A DNA stretch of 63,865 nt, counting the filler. It is 6 parts of 6 records of this genome, joined end to end, with 100 filler letters (N's around TTAATTAATTAA, not from the genome) between each part and the next. Parts side by side here need not be neighbours in the genome. Positions count along the whole stretch, not along the records: positions 1 to 15,113 come from SRR31156797_43839; 5 more parts are not named here. One strand, given 5' to 3'. The notes under the pieces were generated by a model. That model worked only from the letters and a program-made list of their open reading frames with translations. It searched no databases and was not told the origin of the DNA. Positions 1 to 49,234 of this stretch are shown here, one piece after another. Position 1 is the stretch's first letter. Every line of letters begins with the position of its first letter. The translations under genes and the position numbers were made by a program.

Positions 1-1
1 T

Positions 2-391
2 GCCCTGGGCCACGCACTGGTCGATGATGTTGTTGCTCACCTGGGCCAGGCGGTACACATTGGCTTCCCTGGCCCTGAAGTCGCCACCCTTGATGGTGTC
101 GTAGAACAGGCGTTTGACGCTGTCCCCGTCATTCTGGTAATTTTTAGCGGCATTGATGCCGCCCTGGGCTGCAATGGAATGGGCCCGCCGGGGCGAATCC
201 TGGATGCAGAAGGTTTTTACATTATAGCCAAGTTCAGCCATTGAAGCCGATGCTGAAGCGCCCGCAAGCCCGGTGCCCACAACGATCACATTGAACTTTC
301 TCTTGTTTGCGGGGTTGACGAGCTTTACATTAAAACGATAATTGTCCCATTTCTTCTCTAAAGGGCCTTCAGGGATCTTTGAATCAAGCAT
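2..391 (-). CDS. sdhA: Succinate dehydrogenase/fumarate reductase flavoprotein subunit (N-terminal part; runs off window start)
   Basis: Manual translation from ATG at 391: [16 protein letters not shown]...[13 protein letters not shown]...[29 protein letters not shown]-binding GxGxxG and the covalent-FAD His motif; directly downstream of sdhC. Confidence 0.93.
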
Positions 392-406
392 AACGACAAA
401 CTTCCT

Positions 407-1048
407 TTATGAAACCATTGAAATAAAAACAGGAATACAACCAAATCCGAATGCCACCACCAGGCTCAGAAAAATCCCGGCGGTCTTGAACTTTGACTTA
501 CGGCCTGCAGTGCCCATGCCCAGTGTCTGGAAGGCGCTCCAGAAACCGTGGCTCACATGGAGGGCGGCAATCGCCATGGCCACCATGTAGAGGGCCACCA
601 TTTCCGGCCGGTGGAACCAGTTGGTCAAGATCACGAGGTCGCCGACCTTGCTCTGGGCGGCGGAATGAAAGGTGAGCAGATGAAAAACCACGAAAAGCAG
701 AATCAAGATGCCGGTAATGGCCATGCTTCTCGACCCCAGGGTTCTGCCCCCGGCGGTTTTGCTCACGGCATACCGGACCGGCCTTGCCTTGTAATTCTCA
801 TAGGCCAGAAAAAGCCCGGTGATCACATGGACGACGAACAGAATAAGCAGCACCCACTCTGCAATACGAATCAAAACGCCCAGGGAGTGAAGGTGCTCCA
901 CATACCAGTTAAACAGCTCCGGTCCGCCGTAAACCGTGAGGTTGCCAAGCAGATGGAAAACCAGAAACCCGCAGAAACTGAGGCCTGTGATGGCCATCAC
1001 CCATTTTTTACCGATGGAAGACCAAATGGTGTTCAAAAAACTGTTCAT
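407..1048 (-). CDS. sdhC: Succinate dehydrogenase/fumarate reductase cytochrome b subunit
   Basis: SSIGKKWVMAITG...HLLGN...H...HGFWSAFQTLG, five TM segments with heme His ligands. Start moved to ATG 1048 (GAGGGA RBS). Confidence 0.9.
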   Translation of the reverse strand: MNSFLNTIWSSIGKKWVMAITGLSFCGFLVFHLLGNLTVYGGPELFNWYVEHLHSLGVLIRIAEWVLLILFVVHVITGLFLAYENYKARPVRYAVSKTAGGRTLGSRSMAITGILILLFVVFHLLTFHSAAQSKVGDLVILTNWFHRPEMVALYMVAMAIAALHVSHGFWSAFQTLGMGTAGRKSKFKTAGIFLSLVVAFGFGCIPVFISMVS

Positions 1049-1494
1049 ATATCCCTCTAATACCCTTGTAATAATTATTAAACGAAAAAATCCAGGCCCA
1101 CGGTAAAGCAGGGGTGCCCGGATCTCAATTGAATCCAATTGAACCAGTTTTTCCTTGCCACATACAAAAGACTACACTGCCGGTACTACGATTGTCTCAA
1201 GAAACCGTCCGCATAAAAATGATTATCAACAAACGACCGGGACGTACGTAAAGCGCCACAGAAAGTGCAGAACCCTTTTCAAGGTTTCACATAACCAATT
1301 TTTATCACGCCGGTGGATCAAACGCGTCCGACGACTACGGCGTTCCCAGGCCGCCTCCCCCCTTTCGCCAATATTCCTGGCCATAATTCGTTAACAACGA
1401 TCATTCATTCACTTACTGTTCAGAGAATATTTCATACGCCATAATGCAGGAGGTGTCAAAAATAGTTTAAAAAAAATCAACATCCGCAAAAAAA

Positions 1495-2193
1495 TTACAG
1501 AATCGCCTTCACCAGGCGCTCCACCGCTTCCACCCCGTCCGGGGCCGGTGCACTGAAATCCGTGATCTTTCCCACCACCCCGGCCACGGGCACCCCGGAG
1601 AACCGCGCCACGGCCGCCATGTTCTCCCGGACAAGGGGATCCTCCGTCCCAAGGGCGTCCATGAACACAATGCCCCCAGGCCGCAGCCCCCGGGCCCTGA
1701 GGCACTCCACCGTCATCAGGGTGTGGTTGATGGTGCCAAGGCCCGTTCTTGCGGCAATCACGGGCAGGGCATGGCACGCCTTTATAACATCCGCCATGGT
1801 CACCGATTCGGTCACCGGCACCAGGAGCCCGCCGGCCGCCTCGATCACCAGGTGGGAATGGGCGCCCTCTTTTTCCCTGATTCTTTCCAGGGTGGTTTCA
1901 GGATCGATGGTCTCTCCCATGTCACGGGCGGCGAACCAGGGGGCCTTGGGATTTTCGTGGCAATTGAGAACGGAAGGGGCCGGGTCCCGCTTTTCCAGCC
2001 CCGGGGTGTGGCGATAGACAAAGGCGGCATCCCCCCGGGCATCCAAGGGGGAGCAGCAGCCGGTCTGGAAGGGTTTGATGTAAAAAGGCGTTTGGCCCTT
2101 TCGAATCAACGCCTGCATGATCAAGAGGGAAAGAACGGTTTTACCCACATCCGTGTCCGTGCCGATCACCGCGATTTTTTGGCACACCGCCAT
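1495..2193 (-). CDS. bioD: Dethiobiotin synthetase
   Basis: GTDTDVGKT P-loop, IKPFQTG, VIEAAGGLLVP, LGTINHT motifs. Confidence 0.96.
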   Translation of the reverse strand: MAVCQKIAVIGTDTDVGKTVLSLLIMQALIRKGQTPFYIKPFQTGCCSPLDARGDAAFVYRHTPGLEKRDPAPSVLNCHENPKAPWFAARDMGETIDPETTLERIREKEGAHSHLVIEAAGGLLVPVTESVTMADVIKACHALPVIAARTGLGTINHTLMTVECLRARGLRPGGIVFMDALGTEDPLVRENMAAVARFSGVPVAGVVGKITDFSAPAPDGVEAVERLVKAIL

Positions 2194-3330
2194 CTAGCCC
2201 ACCTCCTTCAACGCGTTCACAAGGGTTTGAATATCCGCGTCCCGGTGCAGGGCGGTCATGCCCAGCCGCAGGATCGCACGGCCCCGGGGCACGGTGGGGT
2301 ACCGGGCGGAAAACGCAAGAATGCCCCGGGCAAAAAGGGCCCCGGAGACCCGGACCGCCCGTTCCTCATCCCCCATCAACACCGAAATAATGTGGGCGTC
2401 CCCGGACACCCGGAAGCCCTGCCGGGTCAAGCGATCGCACATGGCGACACTAACATCTTTCAGGGTTTTCCTGGCATCATCCCCCTGCTCCACCAATTCC
2501 AGGGCATCCACGGCCCCCAGGGCATGGGCCGGGGGAAGAGCGGTGGTGTAGATAAAGGGGGAGGCAAAATTCACCAGATATTCCTTCACCCCGGGGGGCA
2601 GCAGCACAAAGGCGCCAAACAGCCCCAGGGCCTTGCCGAATGTGCCAAGGGCAATGTCCGCCGCTCCCCGGGCAATCCCCCTGCCCTTGTCGCCCAGCAC
2701 CCCGAAGGCGTGGGCCTCATCCACCACACTGTAAAATCCGTACCGGGCCTTCAGCTGCCCCAACGCCCTTACGGGCAACAGATCCCCGTCCATGCTGAAC
2801 AGGGACTCGGTCACCACGGCCCTGTTTTCCGGGGGCGCGGCAGCCAGCCGTTTTTCCAGGTGGGCAAGATTGTTGTGGCGATATCCCTTCATGGCGGCAT
2901 TGCTGAGGACCATGCCCTTGACCGAGCTTGCATGGACATGCTTGTCAAAGAGGAGGGTATCCCCGGGTTCGAACAAGGTGGAGAGCAGCGCCAGGTTGGC
3001 CTGGTATCCGCTGGAAAAAAAGAGGGCATCTTCATACCCGAAATAATCGGCAAAGGTTTTCTCCGCCCTGGAGATGGCGTCATAATTTCCCGCCACCAGG
3101 CGGGAGGAGGACGAGGAACCAGCGCCTGAAGACGTGTAATGGGCGGCCACCCGGGCGGCCAGTTCCGGGGACGCCCCCAGGCCCAAGTAGTCATTGGAGG
3201 CAAAGCTCAGGAGCTTTCTACCGTTGACGGTCACGAACCGTCCCTCCCGTTCTTCAATCACCGGGGGATTCCGGTAGAGCCCTTCCTGTTTTTGCAGCGC
3301 TATCCGATCCCTGAACCGCTTGTCAAACAT
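2194..3330 (-). CDS. bioF: 8-amino-7-oxononanoate synthase
   Basis: FASNDYLGL, SGYQAN, ESLFSMDGD, DEAHAFG, GTFGKALG (PLP Lys), RYPTVP. Confidence 0.95.
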   Translation of the reverse strand: MFDKRFRDRIALQKQEGLYRNPPVIEEREGRFVTVNGRKLLSFASNDYLGLGASPELAARVAAHYTSSGAGSSSSSRLVAGNYDAISRAEKTFADYFGYEDALFFSSGYQANLALLSTLFEPGDTLLFDKHVHASSVKGMVLSNAAMKGYRHNNLAHLEKRLAAAPPENRAVVTESLFSMDGDLLPVRALGQLKARYGFYSVVDEAHAFGVLGDKGRGIARGAADIALGTFGKALGLFGAFVLLPPGVKEYLVNFASPFIYTTALPPAHALGAVDALELVEQGDDARKTLKDVSVAMCDRLTRQGFRVSGDAHIISVLMGDEERAVRVSGALFARGILAFSARYPTVPRGRAILRLGMTALHRDADIQTLVNALKEVG

Positions 3331-3746
3331 GCAAACACCTCCTTGTATCGCTTCCTGAGAATTGCTTCAGGAAACCTGTCGTCGTACGCGGTTACGGAAA
3401 AAACAAACCTGCCGGAGAAAGATTCATTTTCCATCTCAGCCACAAGATCGTAGGAAAAGGCCGCCTGGCTCCGTGCCGCCTGGGTGCCGGAAAGGGCCAG
3501 TGAGCCGGAGATGCGTTCCTGCAATGGAAGGGAGCACGCCTCCACCTTGAGCAGGAAGGCATGGCTTGAAAAATCCAACAGCCTGCGCACATGGAGGGCG
3601 CCCAGCTGTGCCAGGGCCTCCATGACCACAAAAGAGGGCTGATCCGCAAAGACCGCCCTTCCCCGGATGCGTGTATCATCCGCCCGGGTAACCGAGGACA
3701 GGAGATGGAACCCCGCCATGCCGGTATCTATCGCTATTCTGTCCAT
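3300..3746 (-). CDS. Hot-dog fold, FabZ/ApeP-like dehydratase half-subunit (Glu-bearing)
   Basis: PSFVVMEALAQLGAL resembles FabZ PGVLxxEAMAQ; no HFPG His loop; overlaps bioF and fabF. Confidence 0.6.
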   Translation of the reverse strand: MDRIAIDTGMAGFHLLSSVTRADDTRIRGRAVFADQPSFVVMEALAQLGALHVRRLLDFSSHAFLLKVEACSLPLQERISGSLALSGTQAARSQAAFSYDLVAEMENESFSGRFVFSVTAYDDRFPEAILRKRYKEVFACLTSGSGIG

Positions 3747-4930
3747 TTTTTCACCACCAGGGCACCGTTCTGGCCGCCGAACCCGAAATTCTCCATCAGC
3801 AGGGTGTCAAAGGCGCTCTCCCGGGTCTCCCTTACAAAATCCAACCGGGGATCGCACGGATCCGCCAGGTTTCGAACCGCCGGCACAACTCCCCTGGCCA
3901 TGAGGGAGAGGCAGATGGCAAGCTCCACCACCCCGCAGGCCGTGGACAGATGCCCGATCCAGGACTTGAGGGCCATGATCCGGGGGGATCGGCCGGGAAA
4001 CAGCCGGGCCAGCAGGGCGGCCTCCATTTCATCGTTGAGGGGGGTGCCGGTGCCGTGGGCGGACACCACATCGATATCGGAAGGCGAAAGTTGTGCCTGT
4101 CCAAGGGCCTTTGCCACCGCCGTTTCCATCCATCGGCCCGACGGTTCCGGGGCGGTCATGCCGCCGCCGTCCATGGACGCGCCGGCCCCCGCCACCTCCG
4201 CCAGGATATGAGCCCCCCGTTTCCGGGCATGGTCCAGGGCTTCCAGGACCACAAACCCGCCCCCTTCGCCAATGACGAATCCGCTGCGGCCCCGGTCAAA
4301 CGGGCGATGGACCCGGCCGGGATCCCCCGGTGCCGTGCACAAGGCCCCGGCCATCTTATAGGCAAGGGCGGCCCCCGGGTTGACGCGGCTGTCCCCTCCC
4401 CCGGCCAGGGCAAGATCGAGACGCCCTTCCCGCACCTTCCGGAACGCCTCCCCCACCACCTGCACCGTGGTGGCGCAGGCCGTGCTCAGGGTCTGGCTTT
4501 CCCCGTGAATCCCGGCAAGGGCGGCAATGGCCGCGGCCGCGGTATTGGGAAGAAAGTTCAATATCCACAGGGCGGAGAGACTAGCGGGCTCCGCTTTTCC
4601 CCCGGTCCCAAGGTCCAGGTTGGGTCCGGCCCCCACAAACAGACCGGCCTGTTCCAGCATTCCGGGGGACAGCCCGGCATTTTTGACGGCCCTGAGGGCG
4701 GCGGCCACCCCAAAGGCGGCACCCCGGTTCAAATACCGGGCGTTCTTGTATCGCCCGGTATAGGTTTTTAAATTAAACTCCGGCACCGGCGCCACCACCA
4801 CCTCCGGATCAAACCCGGGCCGTTCAAAAACGGTCCGGTTCTGTCCCATGGCGGCCATCACCGCTTCCCCGCTGTTGCCAAGGGGAGAAAAAAACCCGGC
4901 CCCGGTAATCACCACACGACGGTTCATCAT
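3734..4930 (-). CDS. fabF: Beta-ketoacyl-ACP synthase (FabF/FabB family)
   Basis: RRVVITG, STACAT (Cys), AHGTGT (His), KSWIGH (His), NFGFGGQN. Start at ATG 4930 overlaps the upstream TGA (ATGA), with GGGAGG RBS. Confidence 0.9.
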   Translation of the reverse strand: MMNRRVVITGAGFFSPLGNSGEAVMAAMGQNRTVFERPGFDPEVVVAPVPEFNLKTYTGRYKNARYLNRGAAFGVAAALRAVKNAGLSPGMLEQAGLFVGAGPNLDLGTGGKAEPASLSALWILNFLPNTAAAAIAALAGIHGESQTLSTACATTVQVVGEAFRKVREGRLDLALAGGGDSRVNPGAALAYKMAGALCTAPGDPGRVHRPFDRGRSGFVIGEGGGFVVLEALDHARKRGAHILAEVAGAGASMDGGGMTAPEPSGRWMETAVAKALGQAQLSPSDIDVVSAHGTGTPLNDEMEAALLARLFPGRSPRIMALKSWIGHLSTACGVVELAICLSLMARGVVPAVRNLADPCDPRLDFVRETRESAFDTLLMENFGFGGQNGALVVKKWTE

Positions 4931-5571
4931 GCCTCCCAATAGATCTCTTCGGGTGATTTCCGGCCGGGACCGGCCGGGGCCTCGTCCGGGAACCCCAAGG
5001 TAAGAAAACATCGCAATCCCAGGGGATCAAGCCCCGGCACCGGATGCTCCCCGTCCAGAAAATGGAGGGGCGCGGTCAGGATACAGGTGCCAAGCCCCAG
5101 GGCCACCGCCCGCAGCATGAACAACTGAAGGGAGAGGCCAATGGTGATATCCCCGTCCGTCCCCCCAAGGGCATCACCGGCCGGGATACCGGCCCGGTTC
5201 AACCGTGTGGAAAAACGCTCCCCGCCCGTTTCCCCCCCCACGGCGAACAGGGCCGGGGCATCCCACATGAACCGGGAGTGACGCCAGTAATGGTTCAGCA
5301 CATTGATGGCCTTCCTGGGTTTCGAAAGCGCTTCCGCCCGGTTCACCATCTCCCGGTATCCTGTCTCCATCCGGGTGGAGAGCCTGTGCCGAACCTCCGG
5401 AGAAACCAGGCGAACATATCTCACCGGCTGTTGGTTGGAGGGGGACGGGGCCGTATTGGCCGAAAGAATCATCTCCCGGATATGGGATTCCGGCACCGTT
5501 CTGTCCGTGTATTTCCGGATGCTTCGCCTGGCCGCGACCAGGGCGTCAAACACGTTGGTCATCTCCGGCAA
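4927..5571 (-). CDS. Nitroreductase-family FMN oxidoreductase
   Basis: RRSIRKY, APSPSNQQP, LRAVALGLGTC, LGFPDE signatures. Confidence 0.9.
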   Translation of the reverse strand: MPEMTNVFDALVAARRSIRKYTDRTVPESHIREMILSANTAPSPSNQQPVRYVRLVSPEVRHRLSTRMETGYREMVNRAEALSKPRKAINVLNHYWRHSRFMWDAPALFAVGGETGGERFSTRLNRAGIPAGDALGGTDGDITIGLSLQLFMLRAVALGLGTCILTAPLHFLDGEHPVPGLDPLGLRCFLTLGFPDEAPAGPGRKSPEEIYWEA

Positions 5572-5924
5572 TGCTCCACATAGGCAACCAGGTCCCGGAC
5601 CTTCAGGACCGGTCCCTCCCCCAGCTCCGCCACCATCTGTCCCGCCCGTTCCGCCGGAATATGGGGAAGATTTTCAATGATCGCCGCCACAGGGTCCGCC
5701 CCCCTCTCCCTTGCCGCTGCGATCATGGCCCGAAGATGTTTCAGGAAGATGTCATCGTCCCGGACCTCGATTCCGAACTCGGTGGACAGGGCCAACGCCA
5801 CCTCAAGAAGATCGATGGATTCCGCATCCAGCTCCCGCACAAGGTAACTTTCCAAAAAAATATCCCCTTCATCCAGATCCAGAATCTCCATCAGGATCGT
5901 TCTCACCCGATTAAAATACGCCAT
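5559..5924 (-). CDS. Acyl carrier protein with internal insertion (121 aa)
   Basis: ELDAESIDLLEVALALSTEFGIEV (phosphopantetheine Ser in ESID) and C-terminal LKVRDLVAYV helix. Confidence 0.85.
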   Translation of the reverse strand: MAYFNRVRTILMEILDLDEGDIFLESYLVRELDAESIDLLEVALALSTEFGIEVRDDDIFLKHLRAMIAAARERGADPVAAIIENLPHIPAERAGQMVAELGEGPVLKVRDLVAYVEHCRR

Positions 5925-5946
5925 CGCACAATTACTCCTTTACGCC

Positions 5947-6687
5947 TTATTTGCCGGCGGTGAGGCCGCCGTCCATGATGATCGCCACCCCGTTGAAGTG
6001 CCGGGCCGTGTCCGATAAAAAGAAAACCAGGGCCTGTGCCGCCTCGGCCGGTGAAATAAACCCTTCCCCCGGCATCCTTTGGACCAGGTCCCGGCCCTGC
6101 TGCTCAATAAATTGTTTTCCCCGGCCCGACGCCACATACCCCGGCCTCAGGGCCATGGCGGTGATCCCCCGTGACGCCAGCTCAAGCCCCGCACTCCGGT
6201 AGATTCCCTCGGACCCAAGCTTGGAGGCGGCGTACAGCCCCTGTCCCTTTCCGGGGCAGCCGGCCGCGGCCGAGGAGAGAAAAATCATTCGCCCGAAGCG
6301 ATGCCGGACCATGGCTCTTGTTGCCAGGCGCACCAGCTCCGCCCGGGCCGCGACATTCCCGGCCAGGTATCGGGAGAGCCGGCCCGGATCCGCAGAGGCC
6401 ACCAGGGTTTCGTAATCCCCCTGGGCCATATCCACCAAATAATCGATGTCCGGATGGTCGGAAAAGATCTCTCCCATCCGCTCCGGACGGGCCAGGTCAA
6501 AAAAGGCGGTTTGGTATTGCCCGGCCCATGGGGAGAGCCGGTCCTCGATCTTCTCCGCTCCCTTCCGGTGCCGGAAGCAGAGGATGGGAAAAAGCCCCTC
6601 CGCCATCAACAGGGGCGCGAGCGTCAGGGCGATCCCGCAGCTGCCGCCGGTGACAAGCACCTTTTTCCCCGTAAAGACAAGGTTCAT
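5947..6687 (-). CDS. fabG: 3-oxoacyl-ACP reductase-like SDR
   Basis: TGGSCGIA, FLSS, YAASK (YxxxK), PGYV, DGG C-terminus. Confidence 0.8.
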   Translation of the reverse strand: MNLVFTGKKVLVTGGSCGIALTLAPLLMAEGLFPILCFRHRKGAEKIEDRLSPWAGQYQTAFFDLARPERMGEIFSDHPDIDYLVDMAQGDYETLVASADPGRLSRYLAGNVAARAELVRLATRAMVRHRFGRMIFLSSAAAGCPGKGQGLYAASKLGSEGIYRSAGLELASRGITAMALRPGYVASGRGKQFIEQQGRDLVQRMPGEGFISPAEAAQALVFFLSDTARHFNGVAIIMDGGLTAGK

Positions 6688-6977
6688 AACACAAGCTTCC
6701 CTGTCACCACGGCCCGGTCCTTGTCAAACAGGGTGCACCGGATACCGGAGCCGTCCCCCCGCATTCCGTACCGGTACTCCCCCGGGGAGACAAACCGCCT
6801 GAACCTGAAATTGGAAACCCGCACCGGCCTTACCCGGCCCTGCCGGGCATGGACCTTGAGAAAGGCATGGATGATCACGCTTCCCGGCACCACGGGATGT
6901 CCCGGGAAATGATCCCCATAGATCCTGTCGGCCGGGTCAAAAAAAAACACCCCTTCCCGGTAAAACGAGGTATCCAT
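6684..6977 (-). CDS. Hot-dog fold, FabZ/ApeI-like dehydratase half-subunit (His-bearing)
   Basis: DHFPGHPVVPGS motif and FRRFVSPG; the catalytic Glu position is His. Confidence 0.75.
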   Translation of the reverse strand: MDTSFYREGVFFFDPADRIYGDHFPGHPVVPGSVIIHAFLKVHARQGRVRPVRVSNFRFRRFVSPGEYRYGMRGDGSGIRCTLFDKDRAVVTGKLVL

Positions 6978-7958
6978 CTAGGACGCCACCCTGAGGCCCA
7001 GGTCTTTGATCATCTCCATATCGGTCTTGATGCTCCGGCCCCGGGTGGTGAGATAATCCCCGCCCATGAAGGCGTTGGCCCCGGCCGTAAAGATAAAGGA
7101 CTGGAAATCATCGAGAATTTTTTCCCGGCCCCCGCAGATGGTGATATTCCGGGTTGGATTGATGAACCGGAACAGGGCGATGCTCTTTAACGCGTCCACG
7201 GGCGTCACCAGGGGCCTTGATGCCATGGGGGTGCCGGGAATCGGGTTGAGAAAGTTGATGGGCACGGTGTCCACATCAAGCTCCCCCAGGGTAAAGGCAA
7301 GCTCCACCCGCTGCTCCCAGGACTCACCCAGGCCCAGGATCCCCCCGCTGCATACGGAAAAACCGGCCTCCTTGGCGATCTTCACGGTCTCCACATCGTC
7401 CCGGTAATCATGGGTGGTGCAGATCCTGTCAAAATAACTTTCCGCCGTCTCCAGGTTATGGTGGTAATTGGAAATGCCCGCCTCCCGGAGCCACCTGGCC
7501 ATGGGCAGGGTCAACGCCCCCAGGGAGGCGCACACCTTGAGGGGCGTGGCCTTGCGAATCGCCTCCGCGGCCCGGCAGACGGTGTCCAGGTCACGGCCCT
7601 TAAGGCTGAATCCGCTGGTGACCATGGAAAAATGGGTGGCGCCCTGCCCCGCCATGCGCACAGCGGTTTCCAGGATTTCATCCACCCCGCGCATGGGATA
7701 GGTTTCAACGTCGGTGCGGTGAAAGGAGGACTGGGCGCAATAGGCGCAATCCTCGGAACAGCGACCGGACTTGGCATTGATGATGGCGCATGAGAAGATC
7801 CGGTCCCCTGTCTCTTTCTCCCGGATCTTTCCCGCACAGCCGATCATGTAAAACAGATCCGCCCCGGAGACCCGGGTAAGCTCCAGCGCCTCCTCCCGGG
7901 TGATCCGACCGTCGGTCAAGATTTTTTCCGCAAGAACGGAAATAGCAATTTTGAACAT
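6978..7958 (-). CDS. bioB: Biotin synthase
   Basis: Radical SAM CSEDCAYC, YHHNLET, CSGGILGLGES, VPINFL, GDYLTT. Confidence 0.97.
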   Translation of the reverse strand: MFKIAISVLAEKILTDGRITREEALELTRVSGADLFYMIGCAGKIREKETGDRIFSCAIINAKSGRCSEDCAYCAQSSFHRTDVETYPMRGVDEILETAVRMAGQGATHFSMVTSGFSLKGRDLDTVCRAAEAIRKATPLKVCASLGALTLPMARWLREAGISNYHHNLETAESYFDRICTTHDYRDDVETVKIAKEAGFSVCSGGILGLGESWEQRVELAFTLGELDVDTVPINFLNPIPGTPMASRPLVTPVDALKSIALFRFINPTRNITICGGREKILDDFQSFIFTAGANAFMGGDYLTTRGRSIKTDMEMIKDLGLRVAS

Positions 7959-8013
7959 GGCTCCTCTCGATTTTCAGTTTTTTGTTTGCTGTATGGGATC
8001 AAATATGCACCAC

Positions 8014-8047
8014 ATTGTCAACTCAAATCTTATACAGGGTTGACAAT
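8014..8047. promoter_or_regulatory. BirA operator (bioO) upstream of bioB
   Basis: ATTGTCAAC-N16-GTTGACAAT perfect inverted repeat matching the TGTxAAC-N14/16-GTTxACA BirA consensus. Confidence 0.9.
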
Positions 8048-8065
8048 ACAAAACGGAACAGGTGT

Positions 8066-8108
8066 ATGGGAAATAGAGAAACACGGCTTAATCTGCTGGA
8101 ATCCAACC
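8066..8108 (+). pseudogene. birA: birA 5' remnant
   Basis: MGNRETRLNLLESN versus intact BirA N-terminus [14 protein letters not shown]; similarity stops after ~14 codons. Confidence 0.8.
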
Positions 8109-8237
8109 CAAAACACATTCTCAGGGTAACGCATGTAATAATTATGGGAAAAACGATACATACTTATGTGAATCTCGTCCCCCACCCCAAACCATATCCC
8201 ATTGAAATTGCAAACAAACCACTTCCCCTTATCACTC

Positions 8238-8253
8238 CGGCACAATAATTGCT
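8238..8253 (+). promoter_or_regulatory. Sigma54 (-24/-12) promoter
   Basis: CGGCAC-AATAA-TTGCT matches YGGCAC-N5-TTGCW, ~35 nt before the riboswitch. Confidence 0.8.
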
Positions 8254-8286
8254 TTTTTATTCTGATTCTGCAGCATTTAGCAAACA

Positions 8287-8366
8287 GCCCGCGACAAAGC
8301 CAAATCCTGTGCAAACAGGAGACGGAAAGCCATGGGGTCTGTGGGAGACAGCCCGGCTGCCGGGGC
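8287..8366 (+). ncRNA. Cyclic di-GMP-I (GEMM-I) riboswitch
   Basis: CGACAAAG-CC-AAA-TCCTGT-GCAA-ACAGGA-GACGG-AAAGCC...GGTCT-GTGGG-AGACAGCC-CGGCTGCCG. P2 with GNRA loop, covarying CC/GG pairs, P3 and GCCC/GGGC P1; sits in the 5' UTR. Confidence 0.88.
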
Positions 8367-8390
8367 CATTCATTAAAAAAGGAGACGTTG

Positions 8391-9236
8391 ATGATCCATC
8401 TTAAAAGGCTTGTTACTCTTTTGCTCATCCCACTGTTCCTGTGGGGTGTTGCCGGAACCGCAGGGGCATCAATCTCGGAAGGGGATTTTGCTTATGTCTG
8501 GTATGAATACACGGTTTCCGGTGAAGATGATCAGTCGGGTTTCTTCCTTGACGAACACGTTGGGAAGGACTTGCATGATTTCGGAACGGTGGAGGTGAAC
8601 AGCCGGCTCTCTTTCTTTGCGCCGGAGTCCAACTACGCCAGGGCTGAGCTGGTTCATAAAGATGTGGACTATGCAAAAGGCGCAGGCGTTCAGATCGATG
8701 TGGATCCTTGGGCCCATCCGGAATCCTTTTCTGGTGGAACGGGATGGGCGGACGCCTATGCTGAAATATATTTTTCAAAAGAGTTTGAGATAACAGCATC
8801 AGGGTATGCGGCCCTGGGCTTCTCCCTGGACGGGTGGCTCGAAGCCTCGGGGGCAGCCGAAGCGAATTGGTCTTATGTCGCTGCCGACAATTTCGACAGC
8901 TTTTTTGAAGATAGGGATTCCATAACGAATGCATCCATGGATGTGGATATCCAAGAGCTGTTTACCTATTCCTTTTCGGAAGATGATATCGGCGAGATCC
9001 TGTCGGTGGGATTTTTGCTCCAGATATATGCGGGCTTTACCGGCGAGGATGGCGGCATGACCGGCCGGGCGATGGCGGACTTCATGGACACCATGTCGAT
9101 CGATTTCATATCCGGGGGACTTGCCAATGCAGGGGGGGATGAAGTGCCGGTTCACCCCACGCCTGTTCCGGCGGCTGCCTGGCTTTTGCTCTCCGGCCTG
9201 TTAAGCCTGATCGGCTTAAGAAATAAGATCGGTTAG
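8391..9236 (+). CDS. Secreted acidic protein with VPLPA/PEP-CTERM sorting signal
   Basis: AAGGAG RBS, signal peptide ...GTAGA, C-terminal PTPVPAAAWLLLSGLLSLIGLRNK. Confidence 0.88.
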   Translation: MIHLKRLVTLLLIPLFLWGVAGTAGASISEGDFAYVWYEYTVSGEDDQSGFFLDEHVGKDLHDFGTVEVNSRLSFFAPESNYARAELVHKDVDYAKGAGVQIDVDPWAHPESFSGGTGWADAYAEIYFSKEFEITASGYAALGFSLDGWLEASGAAEANWSYVAADNFDSFFEDRDSITNASMDVDIQELFTYSFSEDDIGEILSVGFLLQIYAGFTGEDGGMTGRAMADFMDTMSIDFISGGLANAGGDEVPVHPTPVPAAAWLLLSGLLSLIGLRNKIG

Positions 9237-9262
9237 CTCACCTGACCACCTTTGCTTTCATC

Positions 9263-9296
9263 AAGGCGGGGGCCATGGCGCCCGCCTTTCCTGTTT
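9263..9296 (+). terminator. Rho-independent terminator
   Basis: AAGGCGGG...CCCGCCTT stem followed by T-rich tail, between convergent genes. Confidence 0.7.
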
Positions 9297-9306
9297 TCCG
9301 GCGGCG

Positions 9307-9699
9307 CTATTCCCTTCCCCGGGGATATTTCAATTCTATCACCAACACGATTTTCCGTTTTCCGTTTCCCGGTTCAAAGCGGAGGGAGAACAGAACGCTC
9401 ACCTTTATCGCCCGGAGCCGGGGATATGGCTCTCGTTCCCCCATACCGGCGGAGAGGATGCGCCATCCCCTCCGCTTCAACCCGGCTCGGTAAAAGTCAA
9501 CCACCTCTTCCGGGCTGGCGCCCATAGCAAAGACAGTCTTTACAGAATCCCTGGTATACCGGGTCTCAAGCGGTTCCGCCCCCTGAAAAACCGGCACCGA
9601 TTTACCGAACTCCCGGGGGAGGGTATGGTTGCACCAGGCCAGGCCGGCAAAGAGGAGCATACCGATAATGGGAATCATGATGGGGATTCGGCGAATCAT
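9307..9699 (-). CDS. Hypothetical exported protein
   Basis: AGGAGG RBS, N-terminal signal-like MIRRIPIMIPIIGMLLFAGLAW, EVVDFYRAGLKRRGW. Confidence 0.65.
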   Translation of the reverse strand: MIRRIPIMIPIIGMLLFAGLAWCNHTLPREFGKSVPVFQGAEPLETRYTRDSVKTVFAMGASPEEVVDFYRAGLKRRGWRILSAGMGEREPYPRLRAIKVSVLFSLRFEPGNGKRKIVLVIELKYPRGRE

Positions 9700-9975
9700 T
9701 CTTCCCCTCCTTTTTCCAAAGGGGGTGTATCCCGAAACGGATGGCATAATCTTTTCCCCGTCCCCCCTGTCTTACGAGGAAAAGATCACGCTCCAATCCT
9801 GTTGAGGGGCAATCGTCCCCACGGATCACTCAATTCCGCTGAAAATCGCGTTCCCGAGCTGCTTGAACGAGTTTCTGGAATGGCCCCGGAAGGTGGGATC
9901 AATCCCTATACCAATTCAGAGAGATGACGTGGAATTGCAATATGAAGCAGGGGTTTCCCCTTGAATCGCTCTTTT

Positions 9976-10104
9976 TTTGTTTGCCGTATGGGATCAAATA
10001 TGCTTTATATTGTCAACTCAAAATTCAAACAAGGTTGACAATACGAAACGGAAACAGGTGCATGGGAAATCGAGAAACATTACTGAACCTATTGAAATCC
10101 AACC
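9976..10104 (+). repeat. Direct repeat copy 2 (operator + birA start)
   Basis: See copy 1 at 7981-8108. Confidence 0.92.
10008..10043. promoter_or_regulatory. BirA operator upstream of birA-bioA
   Basis: TATTGTCAAC-N16-GTTGACAATA. Confidence 0.9.
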
Positions 10105-11054
10105 AGAACCGCTGGGTCTCCGGAGAGGTGCTGCGCCAGCACCTGGGGATCAGCCGGAATGCCGTGTCCAAGCACATCCGCACCCTCAGGGCCACCGGAT
10201 ATGAGATCCGGTCCGCCCCCCGGAAGGGATATCTCCTCCATGGCATAAAGGATCGCATCATCCCGGAAGAGATCCGGGACGGCCTTGCCACCACGGTGTT
10301 TGGCAAGCAGGAAATCCGCTGCTTCACGGAGACCGATTCCACCAGCCGGCAGGCCCGGGCCCTTGCCGATGACGGTGCCGGGGAGGGCGCCCTCATCCTT
10401 GCGGAAAGCCAGACCCATGGCCGGGGCAGAAAGGGCCGCGCCTGGTTCACCCCAAAGGGAGAGGGGATCTTCATGTCCATGATCCTGAGGCCCCCCATCG
10501 CCCCCATGGACGCCTCCCGGCTCACCCTGGTCACGGCCGTGGCCCTGGCCGAAGCCCTGATCGATACCACCGGGCTTGCGATCCGGATCAAATGGCCCAA
10601 CGATATTTTGTGCAAAGGGAAAAAGCTGGCCGGGATTCTCACGGAACTCAGCACGGAGATGGACGCGGTGAACCATGTGATCATCGGCCTGGGGCTCAAC
10701 GTCAACACCCCCCGGGAGGCGTTCCCGGAGGAACTCAGGGCTAAAGCCTCCTCCCTCCTTGCGGAATCGGGCAGGGTCCACTCCCGCTGCCTTCTCACCA
10801 AACGTTTTCTGGAACGGTTCGAGGGCCATTACACCACCCTGACCAATGACGGTTTTCCCGATCTCCTTGACCGGTGGAAGGCCCTCTCCGACACCCTGGG
10901 CCAACGGGTGTGCGTGGAGATGATCGGCAAACGCCTCACCGGCACCATCCGGGACCTGGATCCCAACGGTTTCCTGGTCCTCGAGGACGAAGCCGGCGTG
11001 CATCACCGCATCCTGTCCGGGGATCTCATACCATTGACAGGGAAAGACGCATGA
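10062..11054 (+). CDS. birA: Bifunctional biotin operon repressor/biotin-protein ligase
   Basis: N-terminal wHTH ([21 protein letters not shown]), [23 protein letters not shown]. Confidence 0.96.
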
Positions 11055-11095
11055 ACGAAAACGCGATCGTAAAATGGGCAGGCAAAAAGAAATGA
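11051..11095 (+). other. 14-codon mini-ORF coupled to birA and bioA
   Basis: ATG overlaps the birA TGA; its TGA overlaps the bio[18 protein letters not shown]. Confidence 0.4.
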
Positions 11096-12375
11096 ACCAA
11101 TGCGAAATATTGAAAACCGACCGGGAACTTCTCTGGCACCCCTACACCTCCATGGTCGATCCCCTGCCGGTCTACCCGGTGGTGGGGGCATCCGGTGTCC
11201 GGCTCGAGCTTGAAGACGGCAGATGCCTCATCGACGGCATGTCTTCCTGGTGGGCGGCCATCCACGGGTACAACCATCCGGTCCTGAACCAGGCGGCCCA
11301 CCAACAGATCAACGCCTTCTCCCACGTCATGTTCGGGGGCATCACCCACAGGCCCGCGGCCGAGCTGGGCAAGCTCCTGGTGGAGATCACCCCCGGGGGC
11401 CTTGAGCAGGTGTTCCTGGCCGACTCCGGCTCCGTCGCCGTGGAGGTGGCCATCAAGATGGCGATCCAATACTGGTTTGCCTTAGGCCGTCCCGAAAAGA
11501 ACCGGCTTTTGACCATCCGCCGGGGCTACCACGGGGACACCACCGGGGCCATGTCCGTGTGCGACCCGGTCACGGGCATGCACGGCATCTTCACCGGCAT
11601 CCTGCCAAAGCAATTGTTTGCCGACGCCCCGGCCATCCCCTTTGGCGAAAAGTTCCGGGAAGCGGATATCCAGAGCATGAAAACCCTCCTGGAAGCCCGC
11701 CACCCGGAGATCGCCGCCGTGATCCTGGAACCCATTGTCCAGGGGGCCGGCGGCATGCGGTTCTACACCCCGGGATACCTGAAACGGGTGAGGGAACTCT
11801 GCGACCAATACGAGGTGCTCCTGATCTGTGACGAGATCGCCACGGGATTCGGCCGCACCGGCAAGCTGTTCGCCTGCGACCATGCCGGGATCCGCCCGGA
11901 CATCCTCTGCCTGGGCAAGGCGCTCACCGGCGGGTACATGACCCTGGCCGCCACCCTCACCACCCGGCGGATCAGCCACGCCATCTCGGAAGAAGGAAGA
12001 TCCGTGTTCATGCACGGCCCCACCTTCATGGGCAATCCCCTGGCCTGCGCCGTTGCCCTGGCCAGCATCCGCCTGCTCCTTACGAGCCCCTGGCAGGCAA
12101 CCGTGGCCCGGATCGAAACCCAAATGAAAAAGGAGCTTGCCCCCTGCCGGGACCTTCCCCAGGTGCAGGCGGTGCGGGTGCTGGGCGCCATCGGCGTGGT
12201 GGAAATGAAAAAACCGGTCAACATGGGAGAGATCCAGAAGCGCTTTGTCGAAAAAGGGGTGTGGGTGAGACCCTTTGGCAGGCTGATCTACATCATGCCG
12301 CCCTACATCATCTCCCCCGGCGACCTGAGTATACTCACCCGGGCCCTGGTTGAAGTGGTCAGCCGGGAACACTGA
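11092..12375 (+). CDS. bioA: Adenosylmethionine-8-amino-7-oxononanoate aminotransferase
   Basis: [45 protein letters not shown]. Confidence 0.97.
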
Positions 12376-12400
12376 ATTTAACCTTATGTCAGGAGAAGAG

Positions 12401-12967
12401 ATGGAACGCTGCAACTGGTCAACCAATGACCCTGAATATATTGAATACCATGATACCGAATGGGGGGTGCCGGTCCATGACGATGGGAAGCTTTTTGAAT
12501 TCCTCATCCTTGAAGGCGCCCAGGCAGGTCTTTCCTGGATTACGATCCTGAAAAGAAGGGAAGGGTATAAAAAGGCGTTTGCCAATTTTGACCCGGAAAA
12601 AGTGGCCCGGTTCACCCCGGAGCAAATTGAAATGAGTCTCAAGGACCCGGGCATTATCCGGAACAAGCTGAAAGTCAATTCAGCCGTGACCAATGCCCGG
12701 GCGTTTTTAAAGATCCAGGAGGAATTCGGCTCTTTTGATCACTATGCCTGGAGATTTGTAAACGGACGCCAGAAAGTAAACGCGTTTACCCGTATGGATC
12801 AGATTCCCGCCACCTCCAGGGAGTCGGAGGCCTTTTCAAAGGACCTGAAACAACGGGGATTCAAATTCGTCGGTTCCACCATCATCTATGCCTATATGCA
12901 GGCCACCGGCATGGTCAACGACCACCTGGTCTCCTGCTTCAGATACCATGAAGTGATGGAGGCCTGA
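12401..12967 (+). CDS. tag: DNA-3-methyladenine glycosylase I
   Basis: RCNW...YHDTEWG, LEGAQAGLSW, IIRNKLK, NDHLVSC. Confidence 0.96.
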   Translation: MERCNWSTNDPEYIEYHDTEWGVPVHDDGKLFEFLILEGAQAGLSWITILKRREGYKKAFANFDPEKVARFTPEQIEMSLKDPGIIRNKLKVNSAVTNARAFLKIQEEFGSFDHYAWRFVNGRQKVNAFTRMDQIPATSRESEAFSKDLKQRGFKFVGSTIIYAYMQATGMVNDHLVSCFRYHEVMEA

Positions 12968-12979
12968 TATCTCAAACCG

Positions 12980-13684
12980 CTAGCCCATGAAGGGCGCCAC
13001 GATAAAATAGATCCCCAACAGGATAATTGTGGAACCGGCCAGTTTCCGAAACCACTGGCCGGCCCCGTTCCATGCGCTGTTTTCAAGCAGTTTTTTGACA
13101 ACAGCCGTTGAACTGCCGGCAATGGCAATGGGCAGACAATGGCCGAGCCCGAACACGATGATCAGGATCACGCCGGTCATGACCTTTTCCTGGATGGTGA
13201 TGATCGCCAGGATCGGCGCAATGAACCCAAAGGTGCATGAGCCGGACAACACCCCGTAAGCAAGCCCCAGCACAAGGGCGCCGGTCAGTCCCCTCAACTG
13301 GAACCGGCCCAAAAGGCTTCCGGACATGGCACATTTTTCCACCCCGAGCATGCCCAGGGCCACCCAGATGAGAATGATGCCGATGAGAACCTGCCAATAC
13401 TCACCCACATCCCCCAGCATCCTGCCAAGCAGGGCACAGATAATACCGATCAGGGCAATGGTCAAAAATAATCCCAGGGTAAAAAGCGCGGAATAGATCC
13501 CGGCCTGCCTGGGGTGAATCATTTTTTCCTGGCCGCCCACATACCCGACAATCAGCGGAATGGAAGCCAGGTGACAGGGGCTGAAGAGCACACTGATCAT
13601 CCCCCATACAAAACATCCAAAGGCGGCCAATGCGATCTCGCCGGTCATCCATTGGTTCACAATGATAAAAAGTTGATCAAACAT
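12980..13684 (-). CDS. ccdA: Cytochrome c biogenesis CcdA/DsbD-like membrane protein
   Basis: FSPCHLASIP and SGSCT cysteine motifs, ~6 TMs. Confidence 0.85.
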   Translation of the reverse strand: MFDQLFIIVNQWMTGEIALAAFGCFVWGMISVLFSPCHLASIPLIVGYVGGQEKMIHPRQAGIYSALFTLGLFLTIALIGIICALLGRMLGDVGEYWQVLIGIILIWVALGMLGVEKCAMSGSLLGRFQLRGLTGALVLGLAYGVLSGSCTFGFIAPILAIITIQEKVMTGVILIIVFGLGHCLPIAIAGSSTAVVKKLLENSAWNGAGQWFRKLAGSTIILLGIYFIVAPFMG

Positions 13685-13724
13685 TCGCTTTTTCCTTACG
13701 GTTCAAATTTTTCAATCTTTCCAT

Positions 13725-14249
13725 TCATAGGTCCAGATTGAACCCGCCCATATAATCCGCCAGCTGCCGGCGCTCGGGATCACTTATCTGGGGACAATCT
13801 TCCGGGCCTTTGGCGCCTTCGGCCACCTTGGAGGCAAAAACCAGGCAGGTGGGGTCATTGCACTCCCTGCAATTGGTTTTTGGCAAAAATTTCAGGATTT
13901 CAACGATTCCCGGTCTCGGCATCCCGGTGAAACAGGGTTCGATTTCATCCTTTTGCTCCCAGGCCGCATTGATTTCGTTTTTCATCCATTCAACGATTTT
14001 TTCGGCCTCTTCCGCTGTTTTAAGGGCATTGACGGCAATTTTATCGCCATGAACGGTGATCAGTTTTCCCTGGGACTTGAAGATCACAGCCGGTGGATCC
14101 GACAGGTATTCAAACCCGCCCAGCACCGAGTTAAGATAGGGCAAGGCCTCGCTCACATCCTGGTCCAGGTGGGCAAAGCAATGGACCCCCTGTGCATCCG
14201 CCTGGCATTTTGACCTGAAGATTTCCAGTCGATAGGATTTTAAAAGCAT
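13725..14249 (-). CDS. Fe-S cluster domain protein
   Basis: C-terminal LPKTNCRECNDPTCLVFA...CP 4Fe-4S motif. Confidence 0.8.
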   Translation of the reverse strand: MLLKSYRLEIFRSKCQADAQGVHCFAHLDQDVSEALPYLNSVLGGFEYLSDPPAVIFKSQGKLITVHGDKIAVNALKTAEEAEKIVEWMKNEINAAWEQKDEIEPCFTGMPRPGIVEILKFLPKTNCRECNDPTCLVFASKVAEGAKGPEDCPQISDPERRQLADYMGGFNLDL

Positions 14250-14298
14250 TTTTACTCTCCTTTACCATCTGTATTCAGCAGGGGCTTCCACCCGACGA

Positions 14299-14688
14299 TC
14301 ACCCTTTATTGGTGAGATCCGGCTGGGCCACGCCCATTTTTGTCATCTGTTCAATGATGCTTTTCTCATCCAGGAACCCCACATGGCGAAACACCTCTTC
14401 ACCTTTTTCGTTAAAAAAGATCTGGGTGGGAATCGCCCGGACTTTGAACCGCGGTGCCTGGGACCGGTTCTCCCAGACATCGATAAAAACGATGTGGGCC
14501 TTTCCCTGGTATGCTTTTTCAAGTTTTGCCAATATGGGTGCCATCATTTTACAGGGAATACATTTTTTCGCCCCCAAATCAATCATGGTCACCGCCCCCT
14601 TGGTCGGGACATTTGAAAAATCCGCGGCATGGGCACCCGTTGCGAAAAGGAGAACAAGAACAGAGAGGGATATCAAAATTTTATGCAT
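14299..14688 (-). CDS. Exported thioredoxin-family protein
   Basis: Signal peptide, CIPC, AIPT cis-Pro motif. Confidence 0.9.
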   Translation of the reverse strand: MHKILISLSVLVLLFATGAHAADFSNVPTKGAVTMIDLGAKKCIPCKMMAPILAKLEKAYQGKAHIVFIDVWENRSQAPRFKVRAIPTQIFFNEKGEEVFRHVGFLDEKSIIEQMTKMGVAQPDLTNKG

Positions 14689-14815
14689 GGTTATTCCTTT
14701 GACTCAAATTTACAATTTTTAAGGTAGTAAAAGCATCACTGTTTCCCACATTGGACCCACCGGAACAGGTAAGTATCATGACATTTTGGAAATCACAGCA
14801 GCAATCGTCGGACAT
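14681..14815 (-). pseudogene. Truncated DGC-domain zinc-binding protein
   Basis: AAGGAGG RBS; MSDDCCCDFQNVMILTCSGGSNVG matches the DGC N-terminus, then loses similarity and stops after 44 aa. Confidence 0.6.
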
Positions 14816-14932
14816 GGTCTCTCCTCCTTTTAAAAAGTGACAAATTGAACTTGGTTGTTTTTAATTCCAAGATGCGTCGCCATCAACACTATATGGTCAT
14901 ATGTCGATGTTTGAAAGCAAAATTTTTTAAGA

Positions 14933-15112
14933 CTATTCCTTTCCAACAATATTATGACGGTCGATCCCCGGAAGTATCCGGTTCAGCTCCCGGATCTCAG
15001 ACGCATCAGCCAGCCAGTGCTTCAGGTTGCCGATCATGCTGGCCGAATACGGGGACCCACTCCCATCGGCAAGGGCATAATTCACCCACAATCCATCCTT
15101 GAAACTTCTCAC
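14933..15112 (-). CDS. ArsR/SmtB-family regulator (C-terminal part, contig edge)
   Basis: Manual translation VRSFKDGLWVNYALADGSGSPYSASMIGNLKHWL...*; wHTH wing motif; context. Confidence 0.75.
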   Translation of the reverse strand: MRSFKDGLWVNYALADGSGSPYSASMIGNLKHWLADASEIRELNRILPGIDRHNIVGKE

Positions 15113-15113
15113 A

Positions 15114-22289: not shown

Positions 22290-22346
22290 TTTTCATCACT
22301 AAAAATATCGGCGTACTAAATATATATAATTATGTGTATTAAAAAA

Positions 22347-23699: not shown

Positions 23700-23773
23700 T
23701 GAACAGTCACAGTAGTTATATAAATTATATACACTATATAATTTTTATAGGTAACTGACAACAGGAGTATACC

Positions 23774-24118
23774 ATGCCATTGGTAATTAAGAAAAAATGC
23801 GTGTCATGTAAGAAATGTGTCAAGAAGTGCCCTGTAGATGCCATTGATATGGTAAAAGGGAAAGCCCTTATCATTGAGGAAAAATGCATCAACTGTGGAA
23901 AGTGCATAAAAATATGTCCGGTAAAAGCTATACTTAAAGACAAAGATATTGTAAAGTACCGGATCAAGTCCGAACTTGACGAAGTGAAGGATTCACTTTC
24001 AAAATCTAAGAACCAGAAAGCAAAAAAGATACTGGTGAAAAGCCAGCTCAGGCAAATAAAGATAGAGCAGAAGATACTGCAGGGAAAGATGAAGGCACTA
24101 AAGCACCTTAAACTCTGA
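23774..24118 (+). CDS. 2[4Fe-4S] ferredoxin with Lys-rich C-terminal tail
   Basis: CVSCKKCVKKCP and CINCGKCIKICP; AGGAG RBS. Confidence 0.88.
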   Translation: MPLVIKKKCVSCKKCVKKCPVDAIDMVKGKALIIEEKCINCGKCIKICPVKAILKDKDIVKYRIKSELDEVKDSLSKSKNQKAKKILVKSQLRQIKIEQKILQGKMKALKHLKL

Positions 24119-24159
24119 ACATAAACCTTACAGTTGATCAATATAAAAGGAGAGATAAA

Positions 24160-49233: not shown

Positions 49234-49234
49234 C

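Follow-up and report, generated by a model that had tools for sequence, protein, structure and literature searches.

A stretch of DNA of 63,865 nucleotides (the window, 63.9 kb of parts of one genome joined end to end, positions 1 to 15,113 coming from SRR31156797_43839) carries on its minus strand, from 7958 down to 1495, nine intact and densely packed genes with bioB first and bioD last. Between bioB and bioF lie genes resembling those of fatty acid synthesis (FAS), which encode two hotdog proteins, a short-chain dehydrogenase/reductase (SDR), an acyl carrier protein (ACP), a nitroreductase-fold protein and a beta-ketoacyl-ACP synthase (KS). The operon probably supplies the pimeloyl moiety to BioF by a BioC-independent, ACP-bound route. 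With the same degree of confidence it is assigned to the Desulfovibrio-type route that uses neither BioC nor BioH, in the form that has the nitroreductase within the cluster and is repressed by BirA when biotin is plentiful.

Rodionov 2004 has described an extended bio operon of Desulfovibrio with homologues of ACP, 3-oxoacyl-ACP synthase, reductase and dehydratase, and has proposed a pimeloyl route for it (PMC545781); this is the hypothetical route that an earlier, sequence-only reading of the window had mentioned. Trotter 2023 has applied random barcode transposon-site sequencing (RB-TnSeq) with avidin to Desulfovibrio vulgaris and reported that nine clustered genes (DVU2558:DVU2565) and an unlinked nitroreductase, DVU1220, are specifically needed without biotin (PMC10102598). 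According to that study, the enoyl reductase (ER) may be the nitroreductase or else an enzyme of housekeeping metabolism, and Syntrophobacter fumaroxidans and Desulfobacter vibrioformis DSM 8776 have nitroreductase genes within their clusters. The novelty implied by the sequence-only reading does not hold, as the route was proposed in 2004 and mutant data followed in 2023, and a claim of discovery would add little because both the pathway hypothesis and the genetics are already in print. The new points are modest: a split catalytic pair, peculiarities of the KS and the ACP, a core of ACP, nitroreductase and BioF in relatives, and a duplicated operator.

In the proposed route, the dedicated ACP would be loaded with malonate, probably via the housekeeping FabD, and the FabF-like KS would join an ACP-bound dicarboxylic primer to malonyl-ACP. 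The SDR would reduce the 3-oxo group, a heterodimer of the two hotdog proteins would dehydrate the product at one composite site made of His23 of a 97-amino-acid (aa) protein and Glu43 of a 148-aa protein, and the flavin mononucleotide (FMN) nitroreductase-fold protein would reduce the enoyl thioester. The chain would grow from C3 to C5 to C7 in two rounds, pimeloyl-ACP would be passed to BioF, and BioA, BioD and BioB would complete biotin. We consider the question of two rounds starting from malonyl-ACP to be evenly balanced. Such a route would resemble the BioC-BioH pathway of E. coli in having two FAS-type rounds from a malonyl thioester and in handing an ACP thioester to BioF, and would differ in having no methyl-ester masking and in using dedicated enzymes and a dedicated carrier instead of the housekeeping FAS. 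The earlier reading had described a complete private elongation cycle that tolerates a free omega-carboxyl group and delivers pimeloyl-ACP to BioF. A private cycle serving BioF fits the present results and the published work; the word complete was too strong, since we infer the ER step, the primer and the tolerance of the omega-carboxyl group.

Operon structure, control and conservation

The coordinates, junctions and family matches bear out the packed nine-gene operon of the earlier reading. The first gene, bioB (6978-7958), encodes a biotin synthase of 326 aa with Radical_SAM and BATS domains that scores 393.4 bits against TIGR00433 (cut-off 225). The last two are bioF (2194-3330), for an 8-amino-7-oxononanoate synthase of 378 aa with TIGR00858 as its top family and an Aminotran_1_2 match of 157.9 bits, and bioD (1495-2193), for a dethiobiotin synthase of 232 aa with 116 bits against TIGR00347 (cut-off 83.3). 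From bioB to bioD the eight intergenic junctions measure 0, -4, +22, -4, -1, -13, -31 and 0 nt, which makes five overlaps, two abutting pairs and one gap of 22 nt, and all nine genes are probably translationally coupled. The KS start was set at 4927 and not at 5011 because the orthologues begin with MNRRV; a 425-aa reading from 5011 was rejected as too long. No sigma-70-like promoter was found in 1150-10150 (0 against 3.4 expected), and the scan for a terminator after bioD gave none that was convincing.

A BirA operator at 8015-8046 (minus strand), 57 nt upstream of the bioB ATG, is a perfect palindrome and an exact match to TTGTCAACC-N14-AGTTGACAA, the form that Table 1 of Rodionov 2004 gives for the bioB site of Geobacter sulfurreducens (PMC545781). 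The operator named in the earlier reading is thus confirmed, and a second match to the same pattern, at 10010-10041 (minus strand), precedes birA; these are the only two sites in the window, against 0 in 100 shuffles. The consensus TTGTAAACC-N15-GGTTTACAA, allowing up to three mismatches, gave zero sites in the window, whose BirA sites have the N14 spacing with C/G variants. The birA gene (10062-11054, plus strand) encodes a bifunctional biotin ligase/repressor of 330 aa with HTH_11, BPL_LplA_LipB and BPL_C domains. Next to it stands bioA (11074-12375, plus strand), for the late-pathway aminotransferase of 433 aa (Aminotran_3, 411.7 bits), which is 85-89% identical to the birA-adjacent bioA of the three loci L001-L003. 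The view that bioA is absent was therefore mistaken, as bioA and birA (10062-12375) lie together under the second operator, and the late biotin pathway is complete on the window in the form of two BirA-controlled units.

The three closest relatives have bioB and birA side by side in divergent orientation, whereas the window has an insertion of about 2 kb between the two genes. A segment of about 135 bp with the operator and the first codons of birA occurs twice, at 7975-8110 and 9975-10110 (84% mean column identity over a 200-base alignment). The insert between the copies (8110-9975) has two open reading frames (ORFs) without a Pfam family, namely 8391-9236 (plus strand), for a putative secreted protein, and 9307-9747 (minus strand, 146 aa). 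The tail of the putative secreted protein is PEP-CTERM-like.

The nearest loci are those of two metagenome-assembled genomes of Desulfobacterium sp., with KS identities of 81-83% and, protein by protein over the cluster and birA-bioA, identities of 61-89%. The profile of the 148-aa hotdog protein proved to be a specific marker of the module, with 236 representatives at E<=1e-3 when 1.84 billion cluster representatives were searched exhaustively by profile; a word-index search with the protein itself brought up just 13 close relatives. Of 401 genomes sampled evenly from the phylum, eight carried the marker, in all eight beside a FabF-like KS and bioF. The order hotdog-SDR-ACP-(nitroreductase)-KS-hotdog-bioF is kept in 10/10 loci from the contigs of relatives and at the loci of all eight marker-positive genomes (one genome, G004, is common to both sets, and the contig of L023 shows KS-hotdog-bioF only).

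The cluster of D. vulgaris Hildenborough, as described in the two published studies, resembles that of the window in the genes that separate bioB from bioF (a FabF-like KS, a 3-oxoacyl-ACP reductase, a dedicated ACP and two FabZ-like proteins), in its control by BirA, and in the proposal that pimeloyl-ACP is made without methyl esters; D. vulgaris has no bioC or bioH, and neither was found on the 63.9-kb window. It differs in three respects. The window has its nitroreductase inside the operon, and in-cluster copies are only distantly related to DVU1220 (PMC10102598); the bioA of the window lies beside birA and not in the operon; and the first hotdog protein of the window has His at the FabZ Glu position, where the two clusters that we label Desulfovibrio-like (L026 and L027, without nitroreductase and with a Glu-keeping first hotdog) retain Glu. 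The clusters of D. vibrioformis DSM 8776 and S. fumaroxidans MPOB agree with that of the window in gene order, and both have the nitroreductase in place. Individual proteins of the D. vibrioformis locus (L004), which comes from a different organism, are 57-76% identical to their counterparts in the window; the insertion of about 2 kb and the duplicated operator between bioB and birA set the window apart.

The search for other pimelate genes agreed with the earlier reading that the contig has no bioC, bioH/G/K/J/V, bioW, bioI or bioZ. A Pfam scan of 49 ORFs (the nine operon genes, ten neighbours, and 30 of the 51 greedy ORFs beyond 14 kb, selected for a length of 190-640 aa) gave no match to a BioC-type methyltransferase, an alpha/beta hydrolase, BioW, a P450 or a KSIII, and a six-frame tblastn of the window with three BioC queries from the phylum gave a best E of 0.082. 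The genomes of five relatives (G001-G005) were searched for BioC, BioW and BioH, and none had any of the three above the cut-off. In the phylum sample, BioC (full length, E<=1e-40) was found in 100/401 genomes, 23 of them above the cut-off, and in 0/8 marker-positive genomes; the search for BioW and BioH covered one of these eight (G004). BioC is hence absent from all 12 cluster-bearing relatives checked, G004, which belongs to both sets, being counted once. This phyletic pattern is consistent with the assignment and is not decisive.

Several points weigh against the assignment. The anticorrelation with BioC is weak by itself, as 0/8 has a chance of about 0.1 at a background of 25%. The search for rival genes covers the 63.9-kb window, so that a second pimelate route may be present elsewhere in the source genome. 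BioF remains below the equivalog cut-off of TIGR00858 (348.3 against 426.45 bits), with Kbl as the second family at 267 bits; synteny with bioD supports the BioF function, and the low score may reflect adaptation to a dedicated carrier. Biochemical characterization of any member of the pathway was not found in print, in agreement with the earlier reading, in a search that left most subscription journals outside.

Candidate elongation enzymes, carrier and dehydratase

The KS gene (3734-4927, minus strand) encodes a FabF-like protein of 397 aa with PF00109 and PF02801 matches that belongs to a distinct subfamily. It scores 278 bits against TIGR03150 (FabF), below the equivalog cut-off of 493.75, and aligns over its full length with the Thermus thermophilus FabF 1j3n, with the catalytic Cys (TACAT), His (AHGT) and His (IGH) intact. 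In three relatives the bio-type KS (264-284 bits) is distinct from the housekeeping FabF of the same genome (609-661 bits). Two other cluster-bearing genomes, G001 and G004, have best FabF-like matches of 355 and 379 bits, under the TIGR03150 cut-off, which may reflect incomplete assembly or a divergent FAS. Comparison of 17 bio-type KS proteins with four FabF proteins (E. coli and three relatives) revealed three arginines, R68, R181 and R352, that occur only in the bio-type and in 17/17 each, and a PNLD insertion directly after the Gly aligned with E. coli G108 (numbering with the initiator); these features are present in 15-17 of the 17. Further changes in the bio-type are F203 to Y and F133 and F134 to L and W. 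The aligned positions of E. coli FabF probably belong to the acyl pocket and the Ile108 gate or to their surroundings, and the pocket region of the bio-type KS would be reshaped.

The SDR (5947-6687, minus strand, 246 aa, adh_short 89 bits) is a candidate FabG-like 3-oxoacyl-ACP reductase. It has the conserved S...YxxxK residues and a family-specific RPGY...GRG motif, and scores 101-109 bits against the FabG models TIGR01830 and NF009466, whose cut-offs are 222-298 (best NF009466, 109 against 222). The ACP-like carrier (5559-5924, minus strand, 121 aa) matches PP-binding (PF00550) at 28.4 bits (cut-off 20.8) and does not reach the NCBIfam ACP equivalogs (45.3 against a cut-off of 71). Its serine motif is ESIDLLE, in which ESID aligns with DSLD of E. 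coli AcpP across 16 orthologues, and ahead of the last helix there is an insertion of about 40 residues with conserved arginines. It has been suggested in print that the active sites are less hydrophobic and so can tolerate a free carboxylate, and the features of the KS, SDR and ACP would agree with this.

The two hotdog proteins appear to share between them the residues that FabZ has in one chain. The 97-aa protein (6684-6977, minus strand) is a truncated FabZ-like hotdog with a DHFPGxPVVPG motif containing His23. Its match to PF07977 is weak (22.9 bits, cut-off 23), and at 21 bits it fails the FabZ equivalogs TIGR01750 and NF000582 (cut-offs 113-155). The profile of its family matches FabZ structures (4h4g at E 3.2e-6) with the catalytic His aligned to His23, and D22-H23-F24-P25-G26 is invariant in 9/9 orthologues. 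At the position of the FabZ Glu, eight of these nine have His (His37 in the window) and one has Asp. The 148-aa protein (3300-3746, minus strand) has no HFP motif and no Pfam or NCBIfam match. It carries Glu43 in vmEalAQ, as the fourth residue of the central helix, and this Glu is kept in 137/137 family representatives of 125-200 aa. Neither protein thus has the His and Glu pair in a single chain.

An AlphaFold2 (AF2) model of the 148-aa protein (pLDDT 86.1) has a hotdog fold with a helix at 40-56, strands and an extra C-terminal helix, and a Foldseek search with it returned FabZ chains at the top (TM 0.61-0.63; 1u1z_B at E 6.8e-6 and TM 0.63). The predicted complex of the 97-aa and 148-aa proteins reached an ipSAE of 0.92 in 3/3 runs, against 0.09 for the best of three controls, with a contact agreement of at least 96% and a pLDDT of at least 90 for the partners; in a benchmark, the mark was reached by 51/78 solved complexes and by 2/108 mismatched pairs. 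In the predicted interface, Glu43 is in contact with residues 31-34 of the His subunit, and the stretch 16-27, which includes His23, also takes part. The model favors binding, and the FabZ catalytic pair would be split between two hotdog proteins in a predicted heterodimer. We found no description of such a split pair for the hotdogs of this module in the literature.

Other results tell against the composite site. The best match of the 148-aa profile among PDB sequences was an unrelated protein at E 0.077, and hhalign comparisons were not significant (probability of 1.6% with E. coli FabZ and 0.2% with the 97-aa family), so that the assignment as a hotdog rests on the fold, and the equivalence of Glu43 and the FabZ glutamate on the fold, the motif and the predicted interface. 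The score of the complex may also be a memory of solved hotdog dimers (FabZ, ApeI:ApeP), since a pass may reflect likeness where such dimers have already been solved. In the Desulfovibrio-like clusters the first hotdog keeps Glu (L026, 6680-7333, CLLET; L027, 13374-12691, CLLEA), and a homodimer could therefore work there. The His and Glu labels that the earlier reading gave to the two hotdogs accordingly stand for the subtype of the window, to which the split is specific, and do not extend to the Desulfovibrio type. A thioesterase role for the 148-aa protein was considered, as 4HBT-type thioesterases are among its fold neighbors, and was judged less likely because no BioW-type ligase that could re-activate free pimelate was found in the relatives searched, and because the protein is predicted to pair with the His subunit. 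On balance, it is rather likely that the two hotdog proteins form a dehydratase.

A parallel exists in the ApeI:ApeP dehydratase of aryl-polyene synthesis, which is reported to be a heterodimer with a single active site (PMC8041823). Its chains resemble those of the window, 6qsr_A matching the 97-aa profile at E 0.009 and 6qsr_B the 148-aa model in Foldseek at E 5.8e-5 and TM 0.60; sequence similarity is very low, the pathway and substrate are others, and the heterodimer of the window is a predicted one. Aryl-polyene clusters likewise have dedicated sets of ACP, KS, ketoreductase (KR) and heterodimeric dehydratase (DH), and this, together with the scores of the KS, SDR, ACP and hotdog, all under the FAS-family equivalog cut-offs, would suit an explanation in which the FAS-like genes serve the synthesis of another acyl compound (a lipid or polyketide) and came to lie among the bio genes by chance. 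We regard that explanation as highly improbable, given that the genes lie between bioB and bioF with overlapping reading frames under a BirA operator, that the module is embedded among bio genes in at least four named lineages, and that the genetics of D. vulgaris indicate biotin. A module wholly unrelated to biotin was rejected on the grounds of synteny, the operator and the published genetics.

The nitroreductase-fold protein

The gene between those of the ACP and the KS (4927-5562, minus strand) encodes a protein of 211 aa with 76.8 bits against PF00881 (cut-off 23.5). Its ATG at 5562 overlaps the ACP stop (ATGA) and its end overlaps the KS start; a TTG at 5571 is an alternative start (214 aa). 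The motifs RRSIRxY and APSPxNxQP are invariant in 7/7 orthologues, and FMN binding is predicted. The best PDB matches are 3gfa (E 1.6e-8) and then 4xom, FbiB's C-terminal domain (E 6.6e-8). This domain is also the top NCBIfam match, at 43.7 bits against a cut-off of 249.55, so that the protein is not a member of that family. An AF2 model from the alignment of seven sequences had a mean pLDDT of 45.7 and was not usable. The FbiB domain, a dehydro-F420-0 reductase, is reported to act with FMNH2 on a C=C bond in conjugation with a carboxylate, which it reduces (PMC6450877). It shares the FMN nitroreductase fold with the protein of the window and is its nearest characterized relative; the window protein differs in standing alone and in its proposed substrate, an enoyl-ACP. 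It is the only ER candidate in the operon, and its fold is neither the SDR nor the FabK TIM-barrel fold of the known enoyl-ACP reductases (FabI, FabL, FabV, FabK, FabMG). We hold it about equally probable that this protein is the enoyl reductase of the module and that it is not.

Among the 16 clusters in which the interval is visible, 12 have the nitroreductase between the ACP and the KS. The four others weigh against an ER role, as they have no nitroreductase and the best profile matches of their genomes reach only 31-40 bits. The nitroreductase is therefore not universally required in the form seen in the window, and a housekeeping ER could serve in its place. Two of the clusters without it, L008 and L024, have no alternative ER gene downstream of bioD because the next genes are on the other strand. 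These clusters speak for an explanation in which FabI, FabK or FabV closes the cycle and the nitroreductase has an accessory redox role, such as flavin reduction or the supply of electrons to the radical-SAM enzyme BioB. Trotter 2023 has named a promiscuous FAS enzyme as an alternative (PMC10102598), and a 2022 review of bacterial enoyl-ACP reductases does not use the word nitroreductase (PMC9260719). An accessory role agrees poorly with the translational coupling of the nitroreductase to ACP and KS, with its retention between these two in L004, where bioB is not adjacent, and with the reduction of a C=C bond by its closest characterized relative. Nor does it agree well with two genomes that keep the nitroreductase with ACP and bioF in units from which KS, KR, DH and bioB are absent, and we regard it as doubtful.

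These two genomes came from a survey of strong orthologues of the nitroreductase (at least 221 bits, the next best being 97), which occur in 7/401 genomes of the phylum sample and always beside a bio-type ACP. Five are in marker-positive clusters; the other two, G078 and G112, have bare units of ACP, nitroreductase and bioF without the marker, KS, SDR or hotdog genes (L053, G112:C1, 8325-10397; L052, G078:C76, 200-8152), that of G078 with bioD as well. Neither is among the BioC-positive genomes. The bare units connect the nitroreductase with the carrier and BioF and not with BioB. In G078 the unit is followed by bioD and a PcaD-like alpha/beta hydrolase gene and preceded by a FabG-like SDR gene; before this come genes of the benzoyl-CoA pathway, namely Had (TIGR03201, 467 bits) and Oah (TIGR03200, 490 bits), both above cut-off, and one that is dienoyl-CoA-hydratase-like. 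The product of Oah is 3-hydroxypimeloyl-CoA. The arrangement in G078 and G112 may represent a different feed into the same core of ACP, nitroreductase and BioF.

The same neighborhood bears on the number of rounds. BioZ of alpha-proteobacteria is a ketosynthase that can take a glutaryl primer (PMC12625853), and by similar logic the KS of the window might accept a preformed C5 dicarboxyl primer (glutaryl-CoA or -ACP, for example from benzoyl-CoA or lysine catabolism), so that KR, DH and ER act once. Many of the cluster-bearing lineages are Syntrophales or Desulfobacterales, and the unit beside Had and Oah (ACP, nitroreductase, bioF and bioD) indicates that C7/C5 dicarboxyl-CoA metabolism can be nearby. 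BioZ and the KS of the window would be alike in accepting a primer with a free omega-carboxylate, but BioZ is a FabH-type KSIII that works with glutaryl-CoA and the housekeeping FAS, whereas the KS of the window is of the FabF type with Cys-His-His, suited to acyl-ACP primers, and has its own KR, DH, ER and ACP. In addition, the operon encodes neither a CoA:ACP transacylase nor a ligase. The pathway also occurs in Desulfovibrio, which is not known to degrade benzoate. A single round from a C5 primer is therefore judged unlikely.

A joint reading of the operon and the bare units can be offered tentatively, and we hold it to be somewhat less probable than its negation. The nitroreductase would belong to a new structural class of FMN-dependent enoyl-ACP reductases for omega-carboxy enoyl thioesters (such as glutaconyl- and 2,3-didehydropimeloyl-ACP). 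It would form a conserved core together with BioF and the insert-bearing ACP, fed either by the private KS, KR and split-dyad heterodimeric dehydratase or, in some relatives, by products of benzoyl-CoA ring cleavage, and conserved arginines of the KS, SDR, ACP and hotdogs would bind the free carboxylate in place of the methyl-ester trick.

Other genes of the window and meaning of the operon

Downstream of bioD, on the same strand, 2-1138 holds the gene for a cytochrome b subunit of succinate dehydrogenase/fumarate reductase and the beginning of one for an FAD-binding flavoprotein subunit, which are unrelated to the operon. A polyphosphate-related neighborhood extends over 19540-27483 and comprises a CYTH and Ppx/GppA protein (19540-20793), PPK2 (20787-22289, minus strand), an MgtC/DUF4010 protein (22347-23699, minus strand), a CHAD protein (24160-26079) and a PPK1-like ORF (26143-27483) of only 446 aa, which ends inside the first C-terminal domain and may be truncated or mis-delimited. 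A zinc-homeostasis set at 47070-51865 consists of an ABC-3 permease, an ABC ATPase, a Fur-family regulator, ZnuA and a CobW-family GTPase, and the ABC transporter encoded at 53403-56042 is of the molybdate or tungstate type (SBP_bac_11, BPD_transp_1 and ABC_tran with TOBE).

The operon bears on the enzyme-level source of the pimeloyl moiety in organisms without BioC, BioW, BioI, BioZ or BioE. A 2025 paper on BioE counts BioC-BioH, BioI-BioW and BioZ before a 'fourth' pathway and makes no mention of the Desulfovibrio route, and the route is not mentioned in a 2024 review of microbial biotin production. The operon of the window places every proposed activity, including the reductase that is unlinked in Desulfovibrio, in one co-translated unit and is therefore a convenient template for complementation or reconstitution. 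If the proposed reading is true, it would amount to methyl-ester-free FAS chemistry on dicarboxylates, would add the nitroreductase fold to the classes of enoyl reductase, and would provide a second example of a heterodimeric hotdog dehydratase with a single site.

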